Assembly: GCF_024223415.1 (NCBI RefSeq)
Contig: NZ_CP100500.1
Direction: 5' to 3' (one strand)
Length of the DNA stretch: 64,000 bases
Source of the DNA: Escherichia coli
GTDB lineage: Bacteria; Pseudomonadota; Gammaproteobacteria; Enterobacterales; Enterobacteriaceae
Of this stretch, positions 1,600-23,400 are shown piece after piece; position 1 is the first letter of the stretch, and each line of letters opens with the position of its first letter. The notes under the pieces are model-generated. The model saw only the letters and a list, made by a program, of their open reading frames with translations, was not told the DNA's origin and did not search any database. The position numbers were made by a program, and so were the translations under genes.

Positions 1600-1710
1600 T
1601 AAAGCTGCCTGATGCGCTATGCTTATCAGGCCTACATAGTCCCTGCAATATATTGAATTAGCAAGGTTTTGTAGGCCGGATAAGGCGTTCACGCCGCATC
1701 CGGCAGTAAT
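1600..1710. repeat. REP-like palindromic units in the torZ-cmoB convergent intergenic region
   Basis: Imperfect inverted repeats gcctgatgcgctatgcttatcaggcctaca and gtaggccggataaggcgttcacgccgcatccggca, typical of enterobacterial REP elements; coordinates approximate. Confidence 0.5.
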
Positions 1711-12703: not shown

Positions 12704-13380
12704 CGGCGAGTAGGTACAAAATGATCCGCAACCAACATATTGATTCTGCAATTTCGGGACGTTACACTGTTCCAGCACCTTATAAAGCGGGTGCCGGGAT
12801 TGGAACCCCGGAATTGCATACGGCGATATACGACGCGCCAGCGTCTTTTTTATCGTCCGCGCTCACGCACGCCAGAATTATGGTGGGCTGGGCAGGGGAG
12901 CCGAAAGGCTCGCCGGTTTCCGTATGCGCCGGTAGTTCCAACCCTGTCCAGTTCACCACCAGTGAGATTGGAACCTCCGGTGGTGGAAGTTATCCATTGC
13001 ATACGGAGGCTGCCATCATGGCTACAGTCCCAACTTCCCCATACCTGAAAATCGAAGTCGTCAACGGCAAGGCCGTTATTTTCTCCCTGCATGTTGCCTG
13101 CCATTTCAAGCGCATGCACCAGAACATCGTCGACAAAATCGAGTATCTGAACTGCTCGCGCGAATTTTTTACCCGCAATTTCATACCGGGTACTTATCAC
13201 ATCTATGGTGACTCCCTGCGTGGTTATTACATCACCCTTGATGGTCTGATGATGCTTCAGCTTGGGTTAAGTCTACGCACAATGCGGTACTACGAGAGCT
13301 GCATTGAAGCATTCCAGGAGGCAGGGAACAGCCTGAATCTTACCGCTTTCCGCCGTAATCAGTGGGAGGCGCGTCCATGA
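12700..13380 (+). CDS. hypothetical protein (start uncertain; possibly internal Met at ~13018)
   Basis: ORF 12700..13380; the first ~100 codons are low-complexity and may be non-coding. Confidence 0.35.
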   Translation: MTASRYKMIRNQHIDSAISGRYTVPAPYKAGAGIGTPELHTAIYDAPASFLSSALTHARIMVGWAGEPKGSPVSVCAGSSNPVQFTTSEIGTSGGGSYPLHTEAAIMATVPTSPYLKIEVVNGKAVIFSLHVACHFKRMHQNIVDKIEYLNCSREFFTRNFIPGTYHIYGDSLRGYYITLDGLMMLQLGLSLRTMRYYESCIEAFQEAGNSLNLTAFRRNQWEARP

Positions 13381-18364: not shown

Positions 18365-18802
18365 TTGTGGAGAAAGTTGATGCGTGATATTCAAATGGTT
18401 CTTGAACGTTGGGGGGCATGGGTCGCAAATAATCATGAAGACGTGGAATGGTCAGGCATTGCCGCCGGATTTAAGGGGCTGATACCGTCAAAAGTAAAAT
18501 CGCGATCGCAGTGTTCCGATGATGACGCGATGATTATATGTGGTTGTATGGCTCGCCTGAAAAAGAACAACGCCGATATGCATGACATGCTGGTTGATTA
18601 CTACGTATATGGGATGACGTTCATGAAGTTAGCAATGAAACATGGATGTTCGGATACGCATATTGGAAAGCGTTTGCAAAAAGCTGAAGGAGTGGTTGAT
18701 GGTATGTTGATGATGCTAGATGTTCGCCTTGAGATGGATCGATATGTGAGCACAAATTATTCGATACGTCGTAAAACTGCGTCCTCCAGGGCAGGGATAT
18801 AA
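18365..18802 (+). CDS. late gene antiterminator Q
   Basis: 145 aa; resembles the Q family of E. coli cryptic prophages ([14 protein letters not shown]...). Confidence 0.75.
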
Positions 18803-18805
18803 GGC

Positions 18806-18838
18806 GTACAAAATAAAAAATGGGCGCAAAGCGCCCAA
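18806..18838. terminator. hairpin with flanking A/T runs
   Basis: gggcgcaaagcgccc stem; on the minus strand it is followed by a T-run, downstream of the porin pseudogene; coordinates approximate. Confidence 0.45.
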
Positions 18839-18980
18839 GTATAAAAACCAAAAAGGTTAATAAATAACAGAAAGTTCGTTGGAAAAGTTAAGTACTGTCC
18901 AACGTTTTGCAGTGGCATGAGGGCACCACTTTATATGCCAGAAAAGTTCTCACTCCCCCGGCATATTCTTACAGAATAAA

Positions 18981-20087
18981 TCAGAACTGATAAACCAGAC
19001 CAACAGCGACAATATCGTCGGTTGATACTCCTGTTCTTTCAGTGAATTTATTTTTATCGAGCATATTGATTTTGTAATCTATGTATGTAGACATATTTTT
19101 GTTGAAGTAATAAGAAGCCCCTACTTCAACGAATTTTTCAATATATCCGTCATCATGTTTTTTACTAATATCAGTACTGGATGAAAGGTTTTTTGCTTTA
19201 GAGTGGGTATAAGCAAGAGACGGGCGTAATCCAAAGTCGAACTGGTATTGTGCCACAACAGTGAAATCTTCGGTTTTATTCGCCACTCCTGAAATATTAT
19301 CACCATACGATATTGCACGGGTATTATTTGTTTCACCATAACTGGCAGCCAGGTACAGATTATTTGCGTCATATTTTACCCCGGTGGCCCACTGTTCAGC
19401 TTTTTTCCCTTTACCAAGCTCAGCCTTTTTCTGATTTTTAGTACGATCAGCAGCGCCGTATGCTGCGACAAAACCAAATCCTTCATATTCATAGCTGACA
19501 GAGCCACCTACACCCTCTCCGTTTGAAGTATCTGGTTTATCCTTGCGTTCATTTTTTCCCAGATACTGAATTGCAAAGCTAAGCCCATCGACCAGTCCAA
19601 AAAAGTCAGTGTTGCGGTATGTGGCAACACCGCCTACACGACCAACGAAGAAGTTATCCTTTTGCGCTGCGGTAGGTCCAAACTCCGGGAAGACGTCAGT
19701 GTAGCTTAATGCGTCGTACACCACGCCGTAGTTACGACCATAATCAAGAGAGCCAGCATCTGCAAGCTTCAGACCAGCGTATGCCAGGCGAGTCTTGTTT
19801 CCAGTTTGAGCTCCATCCCCTTCAGGGTTGTTCCCCTGGAAATTATATTCCCACTGACCAAAACCAGTAATATAATTATTTATTTGGGTTTCACCTCTGA
19901 ATCCAAGGCGTGCGTAAGTCTGATCTCCGTTTTGGTCCTTATCAGAAGAAAAATAATGTAAACCAACTGCTTTACCGTATAAATCCACTTTGTTTGCATC
20001 TTTATTGTATATTTATGCTGCATTTGAAGACGTTGCCAGAAATACTGATGCTGCTACAGCAGAAAGTGCCACTGTTAAATTTTTCAT
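18981..20087 (-). pseudogene. OmpC/OmpF/NmpC-family porin gene interrupted by an in-frame TAA at codon 25
   Basis: Hand translation from the ATG at ~20087 gives signal peptide MKNLTVALSAVAASVFLATSSNAA, then TAA (20013..20015) where porins have Glu of AEIYNKD, then [15 protein letters not shown]... continuing as ORF 18981..19988. Confidence 0.75.
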
Positions 20088-20685
20088 TTTTTATCCTCTG
20101 GTGGGAGTTAATTGGACGACAAAATGCTATCAGGATGAAAATTTAATTTCTGTGTATAATGTATACAAGGAAAATTAAGGAGTCCGATTCTTTATATGTG
20201 ATCACTATCACAAAATAAGAAGTCATGCAAACTAATAAATAGATGGCTATCTTTCACTCAGAAAATTAAGATCAATCTTTTTTATTAGAAGTGCTAAATA
20301 TATTTAATTATTTGGGTTTATGAGTTATTTATATAACCTTAATAAAGACATTACTTTTGAAGAAAAATACGTGCATAGAAGAATGCATAATCTTTAATTG
20401 TATCTTGCCAAACGTCGCAACAATCCAGAGATTGTCTGTGGGGTGAATCATGCAGCATGCAGGGTATGAACAAACACTTTACGATCGTAAAAGTATGCAT
20501 ATCATGGTAAGAGTGGTTCCTACGCCACACAACTTAAACCCGCAGCCAGGCGGTTTTTTACATCGAAAATCTGCACCGGACATTAAGCTCTTTGGCGGAC
20601 CAGATAAGAGGTGCGCTTAGTTGGGTTTGTCGGGCTTTCTCTGAGATTTGCGGTATTAATCCCGTAACGTTATTATGCTGCTCGA

Positions 20686-20761
20686 GGCCCTTTAGCTCAG
20701 TGGTGAGAGCGAGCGACTCATAATCGCAAGGGCGCTGGTTCAAATTCAGCAAGGGCCACCA
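20686..20761 (+). tRNA. tRNA with CAU anticodon (Met, or Ile2 if lysidine-modified)
   Basis: Hand-folded cloverleaf: acceptor GGCCCTT/AAGGGCC, D-arm TAGCTCAGTGGTGAGAGC, anticodon loop CTCATAA, T-loop TTCAAAT, 3' CCA; coordinates approximate. Confidence 0.75.
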
Positions 20762-20762
20762 A

Positions 20763-20839
20763 CCGCTACTAGCTCATCAGGAAAGAGCGTCAACCCTTTA
20801 AGTTGAGTGCGCTAGGTTCGATTCCCCGCTGGCGGTCCA
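20763..20839 (+). tRNA. tRNA-like sequence, degenerate (possible tRNA or tRNA pseudogene)
   Basis: D-arm (GCTC...GAGC) and T-loop (GGTTCGATTCC) are tRNA-like and 3' ends in CCA, but T-stem has mismatches and anticodon loop CCTTTAA lacks U33. Confidence 0.35.
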
Positions 20840-20841
20840 GC

Positions 20842-20914
20842 GCCGACTTACCTCAGTCGGCAGAACAGTTTAGTTGTAACCATCAGGCCACCACTTCAAT
20901 TCCGGTAGTCGGCA
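20842..20914 (+). tRNA. tRNA-like sequence, degenerate
   Basis: 7-bp acceptor pairing GCCGACT/AGTCGGC and TTCAATT T-loop, but weak D and anticodon stems; no encoded CCA. Confidence 0.3.
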
Positions 20915-21254
20915 CTAAATTTCCAGGCTCGTGCTCACGGCCTGCTTCATATCCGCGCCAGGTCCGTCGCGATTAAACCACAGGGCTTTTCAGGAGGGGC
21001 CACAGAGAGCGTCACACTGACCATTCCCTGTGGCTTGTGCTGAGATCCGGTCAGTGAAATTGTGCAAAGGGAATCTTCGGGAGCTTTGGGCAGAATGTCA
21101 GTTATTGATGTTGACATCCTCCACACCCTGAAGGTCGGGGTTTTACGGCGCACTGGATAAAATACCTGAACAAACAGCCTCTTCGTGCGGCTTTTTTATA
21201 ACGAGATTCTGACTTGCTGCCGTCCGTAATGTCGGATGGCGGAGGTGAGGGACT

Positions 21255-21527
21255 ATGAGAATGGACGAACGATACAGTAACGCTGCATACGGCAGCGCAG
21301 GACTTGTTGCGTTCTTTGCCAGCCTGTCACTGCAGGATTGGGGATTTATTATCGGCGTGGCGTTCAGTATCATTCTTGGCGTTCTTACTTATCGCCTTAA
21401 CAAACGGGAGCAGGAAAAACGAACCCGCATATTGCTCGAAATTCTGGAACGAACTAATGCCGGTAATGTTCCGGCTACGGCACATGCTGTGGCTGAGATT
21501 GCGAAAAAGGCACCAAAAGAAATATGA
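21255..21527 (+). CDS. class II holin (pinholin-like) with MRM dual-start motif
   Basis: 90 aa; two hydrophobic helices (LVAFFASLSL..., FIIGVAFSIILGVLTY), charged C-terminus; Met1-Arg-Met3 resembles holin/antiholin dual starts. Confidence 0.6.
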   Translation: MRMDERYSNAAYGSAGLVAFFASLSLQDWGFIIGVAFSIILGVLTYRLNKREQEKRTRILLEILERTNAGNVPATAHAVAEIAKKAPKEI

Positions 21528-21683
21528 CGAATATCCCGGGAGTGAGGGGATAATATACCTTTTAACAAAATCCGGGAACATGAAACGCCCGGAACGTTTC
21601 ATGAGGCATGCCCCGTGGGGAGCAGGGCATAACTGTGCGGAATAGCTTTCATTGTGATATCAATAATCACGGTATTCAAAATA

Positions 21684-22061
21684 TTACGGGCCTGTGGGAT
21701 CAGGTTGTTTTTTGTCTGATTCCAGAGGGAAGGGACGCTGTTTCGGTTCTCTGAACTTTAGTGATAATGAATTGAAAATCCTCATTTTTTGCTGCCATGC
21801 ATAATGTCTGTCCCATGAACAGGGGGGGCTCAATTCTTCATTCACCCATGCGTTAATATCTTGTTTCAGGTGTTGAAGCATACGGGGTGTTAATGCACTC
21901 ATAATAATATCCAGCGTTTTATGCGAGAGTTTACCGTAAGGGTCTGCAAGGATGCTGCTCGTTGCTTCGTTATTATCCACCATAAGTGGAAGTAGCGCTG
22001 ATTTAACTTTTTCTGTCATTAGTTGCAAAAATCTACTGCGCAAATTTTCTTTACTGTTCAT
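21684..22061 (-). CDS. hypothetical protein between holin and endolysin (opposite strand)
   Basis: 125 aa ORF, no recognisable domain. Confidence 0.4.
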   Translation of the reverse strand: MNSKENLRSRFLQLMTEKVKSALLPLMVDNNEATSSILADPYGKLSHKTLDIIMSALTPRMLQHLKQDINAWVNEELSPPCSWDRHYAWQQKMRIFNSLSLKFREPKQRPFPLESDKKQPDPTGP

Positions 22062-22184
22062 TTCTGAAGCCTCATCTGTTGTCGTTTGGTTTTCCTGAAC
22101 GGGTATGTTTATGAGACATGCTGGTACTGGATTATATACCTGATATATCCAGGGTTATAAACCTTTAGATCCTGATAAATATAC

Positions 22185-22718
22185 ATGAACGCAAAAATCA
22201 GATACGGCCTGTCGGCTGCCGTTCTGGCGCTGATTGGTGCTGGCGCATCTGCTCCTCAGATACTTGATCAGTTTCTGGACGAAAAAGAGGGTAACCACAC
22301 AACGGCATACCGCGATGGGTCCGGCATCTGGACCATCTGTCGGGGTGCCACGATGGTGGATGGAAAACCCGTTTTTCCCGGAATGAAGCTGTCGAAGGAA
22401 AAATGCGACCAGGTTAACGCTATTGAACGTGATAAGGCACTGGCATGGGTGGAGCGCAATATTAAAGTACCTCTGACCGAACCACAGAAAGCGGGTATTG
22501 CGTCATTCTGTCCCTATAACATTGGCCCCGGTAAGTGTTTCCCGTCGACGTTTTATAAGCGGCTTAATGCCGGTGATCGAAAAGGCGCCTGCGAGGCGAT
22601 TCGCTGGTGGATAAAGGATGGTGGGCGCGATTGCCGCATACGTTCAAATAACTGCTATGGACAGGTTATTCGTCGTGACCAGGAAAGCGCATTAGCCTGT
22701 TGGGGGATAGATCAGTGA
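22185..22718 (+). CDS. SAR endolysin (T4-lysozyme-like, GH24)
   Basis: 177 aa; N-terminal signal-anchor-release helix ([15 protein letters not shown]), catalytic E..D..T triad context ([20 protein letters not shown]). Confidence 0.85.
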
Positions 22719-23182
22719 GCAGAGTCGCCGCGATTATTTATGCTCTGGTTATCTGCATCATCGTCTGCCTGTCGTGGGCGGTCAATCATTACCGTGATAA
22801 CGCCATCGCCTACAAAGAACAGCGAGATAAAAAAGTCAGTGAGCTGAAGCAGGCGACCGCCACCATTACTGACATGCAGCAACGCCAGCGTGCTGCTGAT
22901 GTACTCGATGCTAAATACACGAAGGAGTTAGCTGATGCGAAAGCTAAAAATGATGCTCTTCGGCGCAAGCTTGATAATGGTGGCAGGGTGCTCGTCAAAG
23001 GAAAATGCCCTGTGCCATCCTCAGCCGAAACCTCCAGCGCCTCCGGCATGGGCAATGATGCCACCGTCGAACTCTCTCCAGTTGCTGGACGAAACGTTCT
23101 CGGTGTCCGGGACGGAATTATCCGCGACCAAACAGCACTGAGAACGCTTCAGGAATACATCAGGACGCAATGCCTTCGATGA
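22700..23182 (+). CDS. i-spanin Rz
   Basis: 160 aa; N-terminal TM helix, coiled-coil periplasmic domain, overlaps endolysin 3' end. Confidence 0.75.
22935..23141 (+). CDS. o-spanin Rz1 (lipoprotein embedded in Rz in another frame)
   Basis: 68 aa; lipobox LIMVAGCSS, Pro-rich mature part; fully embedded in Rz. Confidence 0.7.
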
Positions 23183-23400
23183 TAGCGATAATTTTACTCA
23201 TCATCCTTCACATCTGGCTCTGTAGACAGGGTGGTGATCACTTCTGGAGTGAATCCAGATTAAACATCTCATTGCTGATTCTTGATATTGAGCATCTGGC
23301 GCGCGGTAAGGGGCTGCGTTGAGATAAGAGCCAGTCATCACAAACACCAGGATTTAGCCTCGCATTCGCGGGGCTTTTTATTGCAACAAAGGTAAAGACG

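Follow-up and report, generated by a model that had tools for sequence, protein, structure and literature searches.

A probable partly eroded late-region tRNA cluster with no toxin in its cargo slot in a lambdoid prophage of Escherichia coli

In Shiga toxin (Stx)-converting phages (Stx2a phage WGPS8; 933W/Sakai Sp5 type), a cluster of transfer RNA (tRNA) genes follows a Q933-type late antiterminator gene Q, the promoter pR', and the terminator tR', and precedes the late genes. The three genes of this cluster are ileZ, argN (anticodon UCG), and argO (UCU), names that follow GenBank annotations and Plunkett et al. 1999. Another version of the cluster, Ile(CAU)-Lys(UUU)-Thr(UGU)-Gly(UCC), is carried by PhiR47_1, vB_EcoM-606R7, and the AR_0089 prophage, and consists of four intact tRNAs that score 72.5, 44.4, 73.8, and 64.9 bits against the Rfam family RF00005. 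Here, we analyzed a 64-kb stretch of Escherichia coli DNA (64,000 nucleotides of contig NZ_CP100500.1, assembly GCF_024223415.1; hereafter, the window) in which three tRNA-sized units lie head to tail at positions 20686–20761, 20763–20839, and 20842–20917, separated by spacers of 1 and 2 nt. We consider it highly probable that this locus is the late-region tRNA cluster of an E. coli lambdoid prophage, partly eroded and with a cargo slot that holds no toxin gene. Late-region tRNA clusters of lambdoid phages form a known class, to which this one belongs in a decayed state.

ARAGORN, run on the whole window, called only two tRNAs, with anticodons CAU (unit 1, 20686–20761) and UUU (unit 2, 20763–20839). 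Scores against RF00005, for which the gathering score is 29 bits, fall from 67.8 bits for unit 1 to 31.2 bits for unit 2 and 19.8 bits for unit 3, and RefSeq records of identical DNA annotate a tRNA-Ile and a tRNA-Lys and leave unit 3 unannotated. An earlier interpretation made from the letters and open reading frames (ORFs) of this DNA (the sequence-only reading) had proposed one canonical CAU tRNA followed by two degenerate units, in agreement with these scores; the searches returned neither three high-confidence tRNAs nor none, but two ARAGORN calls and a third unit below threshold. The mismatched stems it had noticed by hand folding are borne out by non-standard pairs at 3 of 21 positions in unit 2 and 7 of 21 in unit 3. 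It had also described the anticodon loops of both units as atypical, which stands for unit 2, where the loop reads CCUUUAA with a cytosine at position 33 (C33). Its suggestion of pseudogenes or unusual tRNAs proved apt on both counts: unit 3 is a pseudogene, and unit 2 is unusual, with a UUU anticodon and C33 on an arginine scaffold, and is damaged as well.

The identity of units 2 and 3 emerges from comparison with the two described versions of the cluster. ileZ aligns with unit 1 and argN with the scaffold of unit 2, but the anticodon of unit 2 is UUU rather than UCG, and unit 3 derives from thrU, not argO. The PhiR47_1/606R7/AR_0089 cluster matches the window in the order of its first three genes and in its spacers of 1–3 nt, and it too contains a UUU/C33 tRNA; the window, however, has a damaged unit 2, a dead unit 3, and no Gly gene. 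By alignment, units 2 and 3 should be seen as remnants of a Lys(UUU)-Thr(UGU)(-Gly) cluster, not as degenerate forms of argN and argO.

Unit 3 is the most severely altered. It is recovered from Rfam at a relaxed threshold, as a match at 20842–20914 (19.8 bits, E = 0.32 in a 1-kb search), as compared with 73.8 bits for the intact Thr copy. It is identical to host thrU at 61 of 76 positions, with 15 substitutions. Related prophages carry an intact tRNA-Thr(UGU) in the same position and with the same neighbors, and unit 3 aligns with it in register. All that survives is the acceptor stem and the UGU triplet. The D stem retains two of four pairs, the anticodon stem two of five, and the T stem three of five; G53 has become C, and the encoded CCA end reads CTA. 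The cloverleaf has a folding energy of −5.6 kcal/mol; in the best fold, at −19.2 kcal/mol, the former D loop is base-paired to the 5' strand of the acceptor stem. Its alignment and its broken stems mark unit 3 as a pseudogene that arose by decay of a copy of host thrU. The same dead unit (likewise 19.8 bits in GF4 and strain 135) is present in GF4, strain 135, and ECCNB12-2, beside intact slot-2 genes of Lys type or Arg(UCU) type.

The origin of this slot is evident from the intact relatives. AR_0089, PhiR47_1, and other phages carry tRNA-Thr(UGU) and tRNA-Gly(UCC) as genes three and four of the cluster. The intact prophage copies show 100% identity to thrU and glyT, which in K-12 belong to the thrU-tyrU-glyT-thrT operon, so they are captured host genes. 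The prophage version lacks tyrU and thrT of the K-12 operon, and the acceptor stem and UGU triplet that remain in unit 3 are those of thrU. This capture of the host operon without tyrU is seen in many lambdoid prophages, among them those with thrU/glyT copies at loci L003 (3206–3359), L005 (2705–2858), and L133 (702–1061).

Unit 2 belongs to a scaffold represented in our sample by 39 alleles, with anticodon UCG (argN of Stx phages), UCU, or UUU. In the UUU version, the anticodon loop is always CCUUUAA or UCUUUAA, so that C33 replaces a near-universal U. Unit 2 keeps an arginyl-tRNA synthetase (ArgRS) element in A20 but carries U35, which favors lysyl-tRNA synthetase (LysRS). The cloverleaf is kept across 38 slot-2 alleles, with 97% of pair cells standard and double-sided changes at five pairs; none of 500 shuffles matched the observed values, and slid controls were only 30–54% paired. 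These figures indicate that the slot-2 family cloverleaf is under structural selection and clearly maintained.

The window allele departs from this family at five sites that have no counterpart in other UUU alleles: C5U, one change in the variable loop, G50U, G59U, and G66C. C5U, which is common to ECCNB12-2, turns a C-G pair into a wobble. G50U opens pair 50–64, adjoining an A51·C63 mismatch typical of the family; G66C breaks pair 7–66, and G59U falls in the T loop. The resulting three non-standard pairs (7–66, 50–64, and 51–63) place unit 2 among the worst two of the 39 alleles. Its 31.2 bits compare with 44.4 bits for intact relatives of the UUU type and 56.7 bits for the UCU type, its cloverleaf energy is −13.4 kcal/mol versus −22.3 kcal/mol for an intact UUU allele, and its minimum-energy fold is no better than that of shuffled sequences. 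The gene encodes CCA, and this allele occurs in ~4 of 5,426 complete E. coli genomes. The damage predicts that unit 2 is marginal at best, or non-functional. Comparable decay is found elsewhere in the same slot. E. coli O145:H28 RM13514, an enterohemorrhagic strain (EHEC), carries another decayed UUU allele (L134, 1201–1277), unannotated in RefSeq, that has lost 1 nt from the D stem; the genes on either side of it are annotated, as tRNA-Ile and tRNA-Arg. Unannotated matches to slot 2 of a similar kind come from many other genomes, and slot 2 is truncated in 31 of 125 sampled loci (IMG/VR and fetched records).

Several observations weigh against reading the cluster as eroded. ARAGORN and the RefSeq annotation still recognize unit 2, which also exceeds the Rfam gathering score and may keep some activity; since three tools call it a tRNA, 'degenerate' is here a relative term. 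The A51·C63 mismatch and C33 are already present in the intact UUU allele, so the weak score is in part a family trait. Stem mismatches are not automatically decay either, because phage tRNAs gain resistance to nucleases through a shortened anticodon stem (PMC12445682). Four of the private substitutions in unit 2 fall within 20 nt (20810–20829), with identical surroundings and no sampled donor; this clustering is not explained by simple neutral drift and could reflect conversion from an unsampled allele. In unit 1, a G53·U61 wobble replaces a near-universal G53–C61 pair and might lower function.

Unit 1 is otherwise well preserved. We compared 125 copies of this gene, comprising 120 IMG/VR loci found with its 5' 42 nt and the fetched records. 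One ileZ allele is common to 118 of the 125 copies, and unit 1 is identical to that consensus at 73 of 76 positions, the changes being C43A, one variable-loop base, and C61U; within the sample, the window allele is otherwise found only in ECCNB12-2. All stems are paired except for the 27–43 mismatch of the family itself (A27·A43) and the wobble at 53–61, and the score of 67.8 bits compares with 72.5 bits for intact ileZ. CCA is encoded. The acceptor stem contains pairs C4:G69 and C5:G68, which are C:G in host tRNA-Ile2 as well. E. coli TilS distinguishes tRNA-Ile2 from tRNA-Met by pairs 4:69 and 5:68 (PMC11947777). Judged by these pairs and its alignment, the CAU tRNA is a tRNA-Ile2 of the ileZ type, not a tRNA-Met. 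It is probably functional, and likely the sole unit of the three to work. After lysidine modification by host TilS, unit 1 would read the rare AUA codon. ATA codons make up 8.8–9.5 per 1000 in the prophage genes of the window (9.5 in the late genes), as compared with 2.7 per 1000 in flanking host genes, a ~3.5-fold difference that fits the classical role of unit 1 in rare-codon supply. AGA and AGG together account for 13.5 per 1000 codons in the prophage late genes and 3.7 per 1000 in host genes.

The surroundings of the cluster, from Q to the lysis cassette, comprise the following features.

18380–18802, plus strand: late antiterminator Q of the Q933/phrog_79 type (phrog_79, E = 9e-52; 79% identity to Q of Stx2a phage WGPS8)
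18981–20087, minus strand: phage porin pseudogene between Q and pR' (phrog_410, E = 2e-137; in-frame stop at codon 25)
20478–20505, plus strand: pR'-like late promoter, TTTACG-16-TATCAT (the sole sigma-70-like site in 20050–21300; aligns just downstream of Q of the Stx2a phage)
20539–20559, plus strand: tR'-like hairpin and T-run, CCGC AGCCAG GCGG TTTTTT (aligns with CCCGC..GCGGG TTTTTTT of Stx2a, AR_0089, and Evi)
20648–20676, plus strand: promoter-like element of the tRNA cluster, TTGCGG-N17-TATTAT (its end lies 9 nt upstream of unit 1)
20686–20761, plus strand: unit 1, tRNA-Ile2 (CAU), ileZ homologue (ARAGORN; Rfam, 67.8 bits; RefSeq tRNA-Ile)
20763–20839, plus strand: unit 2, tRNA on an argN scaffold with anticodon UUU and C33, damaged allele (ARAGORN, Lys(ttt); Rfam, 31.2 bits)
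20842–20917, plus strand: unit 3, tRNA-Thr(UGU) pseudogene, decayed thrU copy (Rfam, 19.8 bits; no ARAGORN or RefSeq call)
20923–20974, plus strand: relic of a post-tRNA hairpin that has lost its T-run, and the ATATCCGCGCC... block found ahead of stx2A in Stx2 phages (aligned to Stx2a WGPS8 and Evi)
20975–21254, no strand: non-coding spacer, the 'empty slot' (no ORF with homologues)
21255–21527, plus strand: holin, first gene of the lysis cassette (phrog_1350, E = 3e-29; 'phage holin family protein' in several RefSeq records)
22185–22718, plus strand: endolysin (phrog_7, E = 7e-64)
22700–23182, plus strand: Rz spanin (phrog_13, E = 2e-71)

This order reproduces that of the Stx phages. The resemblance had been proposed from the arrangement of Q, tRNAs, and lysis genes, and it extends to the sequence itself: Q is 79% identical, and pR'/tR', ileZ, argN, and the sequence preceding stx2A all align, as does the conserved tRNA promoter, which is the same in the Stx-phage cluster and the window. 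On these alignments, the arrangement is homologous to that of Stx phages, more than similar. The placement of the cluster downstream of Q is right as to side, but the two are not adjacent; 1.9 kb separates the end of Q from the tRNAs, with the minus-strand porin pseudogene and the pR'/tR' region in between. The tR'-like hairpin is weaker than tR' of Stx phages and was missed by a terminator scan that requires a stem of at least 5 bp. The Stx phage has ~250 bp more between tR' and the tRNAs, including a second terminator, an insert that the window lacks. Unlike Stx phages, the window has no stx, nanS-p-type cargo, or STnc100, and carries the porin pseudogene between Q and pR'. In translation, the in-frame stop of the porin sits just after the signal peptide, and the same gene is intact in strain Ch1, which makes the window copy a recent pseudogene. 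Farther downstream, between holin and endolysin, lies a phrog_1853 gene fragment (21684–22061, minus strand) that is annotated as a partial pseudogene in RefSeq relatives.

The slot that holds stx in toxin phages can be followed at nucleotide level. In the Stx2a phage, a hairpin and an ATATC(C/T)GCGCC block lie upstream of stx2A, and the window keeps a degraded hairpin and the block after unit 3. Homology with Stx2a ends roughly 30–40 bp before the stx2A start codon; because the alignment runs to just short of the toxin gene, the 'empty slot' has a real basis in the sequence. Unit 3 is separated from the holin ATG by 337 nt (20918–21254), within which no stx-like or other supported ORF, and no ORF with any homologue, was found, in accordance with the ~300 bp devoid of a toxin gene described by the sequence-only reading. 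The place that holds stx in toxin phages would here hold only scar sequence. A structured RNA or small RNA (sRNA) in the 337-nt spacer was considered and rejected (fold z = −1.2; the only match is a 16-bit isrK-like one at a weak terminator), and an Rfam scan of the spacer gave sub-threshold weak matches only. An 8-bp hairpin at 21219–21240 abuts the GGAGG ribosome-binding site of the holin (21241–21245). Most sampled lambdoid loci with a detected holin homologue have the holin start at least 3 kb after ileZ, leaving room for stx or other genes. The tRNA-holin gap measures about 290 bp in the non-Stx relatives PhiR47_1 and AR_0089 prophage. Compared by length, an empty slot of about 290–340 bp is an ordinary state among non-Stx relatives.

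Expression of the cluster can be considered by analogy with Stx phages. The motif TTGCRG-N17-TATTAT, ending 9 nt before an ileZ-type tRNA, is found in ~120 of 126 lambdoid loci despite a varying spacer, and suggests that tRNA expression is independent of Q. A transcription start site that drives the tRNAs has been reported in the Sakai Stx2a phage (PMC7547250). Given this conserved motif and the Sakai start site, the tRNAs are probably made in the lysogen, and in larger amounts after Q-dependent read-through from pR'. As in the Stx phages, they would be transcribed from their own promoter in the lysogen and, after induction, also by read-through of Q-modified polymerase that started at pR'. 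The analysis shows sequence homology, stem damage, and scores directly, whereas transcription, modification, charging, and loss of function are inferred.

The history of the locus is one of recombination. The prophage occupies ~4.6–51.6 kb of the window beside the trp operon, a location evident from the host flanks, in which Rfam identifies the ES036 (CssrF) sRNA (1628–1670, minus strand) and the trp operon leader (60270–60363, minus strand). Positions 20400–21300 match the chicken isolate E. coli Ch1 with 100% identity, and local BLAST showed that only 18380–23384 (99.2%) is common to the two, the remainder belonging to a different lambdoid prophage. Since only this segment is common to Ch1, the Q-to-lysis module is, on sequence comparison, a mobile mosaic segment. 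In ~50 of 5,426 complete E. coli genomes, the best match to the region has at least 95% identity, but only three cover at least 80% of it, indicating that most carry only the tRNA-holin part.

Exchange also reaches below the level of a gene. Relative to GF4, the window has eight differences in units 1–2, one in the spacer, and then none in 1,786 bp (20842–22627). We rejected recent in-situ decay of units 1–2 as an explanation of the GF4 comparison, as the sharp boundary at 20841 points to recombination with a diverged allele. Relative to ECCNB12-2, the window shows no difference across unit 1 and up to nucleotide 20 of unit 2, then 12 differences in 47 nt (20783–20829), which include the change from Arg(UCU) to UUU, and then one in 1.4 kb. 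The packing of 12 differences into 47 nt implies that alleles are exchanged in patches smaller than a tRNA gene. The cluster would thus have been assembled by patchwise recombination between alleles and would now be in the course of loss by mutation. An independent, second switch to UUU in this cluster is seen at IMG/VR locus L030, where the third tRNA, on a thrU scaffold, carries UUU in place of UGU as its anticodon.

The prophage shows two further peculiarities. Pairs of isrK and C4 antisense RNA (P1-type immunity/antirepressor control) are present at 12775–12963 (plus strand) and 51426–51614 (minus strand), inverted to each other and 81% identical over 190 nt; the latter pair, at most ~600 bp from where the prophage ends on the trp side, may be the remnant of another prophage. 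A tail-fiber gene at 45500–46600 contains many diverged internal tandem repeats, seen as overlapping BLAST matches to the Ch1 tail-fiber gene.

Hundreds of E. coli prophages carry a member of the UUU/C33 tRNA family, an argN scaffold in which the anticodon changed to UUU and U33 to C. A prophage Lys(UUU)-Thr pair with a UUU tRNA of this kind is present in at least 536 of 5,426 complete E. coli genomes, and 'tRNA-Lys(UUU)' genes with C33 on the argN scaffold also occur at L003 (3127–3203), at L129 (1601–1677), and in 18 IMG/VR copies. A tentative and somewhat doubtful proposal is that this family is a dedicated phage tool rather than a means of codon supply, acting as a Lys substitute that PARIS/PrrC-type nucleases are unable to cut, or as an ambiguously charged (Arg/Lys) tRNA. 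AAA is not rare, at 31–36 per 1000 codons in host and prophage genes alike, so codon supply does not explain a UUU tRNA, and a counter-defense role would. The anticodons of units 2 and 3 are those of phage tRNAs with known counter-defense activity, namely Lys(UUU)/Thr(UGU) of T5 against AriB and Thr(UGU) of phage 21 against P2 OLD. Unlike in those systems, the lambdoid Thr copy is identical to the host target, and the copies in the window are degraded. The counter-defense idea bears on intact alleles, not on the damaged unit 2 of the window, and is only a lead. If the family is such a tool, the window would represent one stage in a rapid series of tRNA birth, anticodon switching by patch recombination, and death, with its own copy recently disabled.

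A related explanation applies the same logic to the window itself, by which units 2 and 3 are functional, highly derived tRNAs whose loosened stems and odd loops are an escape from tRNA nucleases (PARIS AriB, PrrC, P2 OLD, and HepS) that target tRNA-Lys(UUU) and tRNA-Thr(UGU). UUU and UGU are indeed the main targets of AriB and P2 OLD (PMC12409363, PMC12445682). Specifically, P2 OLD destroys tRNA-ThrU, and tRNA-Thr(UGU) of the lambdoid phage 21 protects (PMC12445682). Phage tRNA-Thr resists OLD through a shorter anticodon stem and altered CNG motifs, and unit 3 lacks both CNG motifs; the UUU tRNA reads G-U-U at positions 39–41, where the AriB cleavage site of the host tRNA is U-C|A. However, the damage to unit 3 reaches beyond the anticodon arm, breaking two of four D-stem and two of five T-stem pairs and abolishing G53 and CCA, and the competing fold, at −19.2 versus −5.6 kcal/mol for the cloverleaf, sequesters its 5' acceptor strand. 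The private changes of unit 2 lie in the T stem and at pair 7–66, far from any known cleavage site, in an allele limited to ~4 of 5,426 genomes. Moreover, the intact prophage Thr copy equals host thrU and is not a resistant variant; we rejected the lambdoid Thr(UGU) copy as a nuclease-resistant form on this ground, and being identical to the host target, it would at most add gene dosage. We regard nuclease escape by units 2 and 3 as improbable.

Highly improbable is the co-option of unit 3 as an RNA element other than a tRNA, either an RNase P/RNase E signal that punctuates the late transcript or a hairpin (GCCGACU/AGUCGGC, 20842–20861) with an influence on how the 3' end of unit 2 matures or on read-through into the holin gene. 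Through two substitutions, the former D loop has indeed become perfectly complementary, over 7 bp, to the 5' strand of the acceptor stem; that stem is intact despite 15 substitutions elsewhere, and the fold of unit 3 beats shuffled sequences (z = −2.3; 4 of 200 shuffles as good). Such a z-score is unremarkable, however, for a 76-nt former tRNA, given −2.0 for intact thrU, and no T-run follows the hairpin. Unit 3 is also identical in every fetched relative with this holin module (ECCNB12-2, GF4, and strain 135), but that identity is uninformative because the whole 1.8-kb segment is identical in those genomes. Finally, a chance resemblance of intergenic DNA to tRNAs in units 2 and 3, as the E-value of 0.32 for unit 3 alone might suggest, has a practically negligible probability and is refuted by homology: both are in register with the tRNA genes of intact relatives, with 1–2-nt spacers and the same neighbors, and unit 3 is 80% identical to thrU over all 76 nt.

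For the window itself, a partly eroded late-region tRNA cluster is of little consequence. The classic slot of this prophage is free of Shiga toxin and other cargo, and of the three tRNA units, two are either impaired or dead; in identical DNA, RefSeq labels unit 2 as a normal tRNA-Lys and leaves the thrU pseudogene unmarked. The window itself is an ordinary, eroding version of a well-known cluster, whereas the UUU/C33 family and its patchwise anticodon switching constitute a modest lead. Because PARIS and P2 OLD attack these anticodons, intact UUU and UGU prophage tRNAs are reasonable counter-defense candidates of temperate coliphages. The lambdoid late-region tRNA cluster is a fast-turnover locus, in which one scaffold bears three anticodons, host thrU and glyT are captured unchanged, patches smaller than a gene are shuffled, and decay is common.

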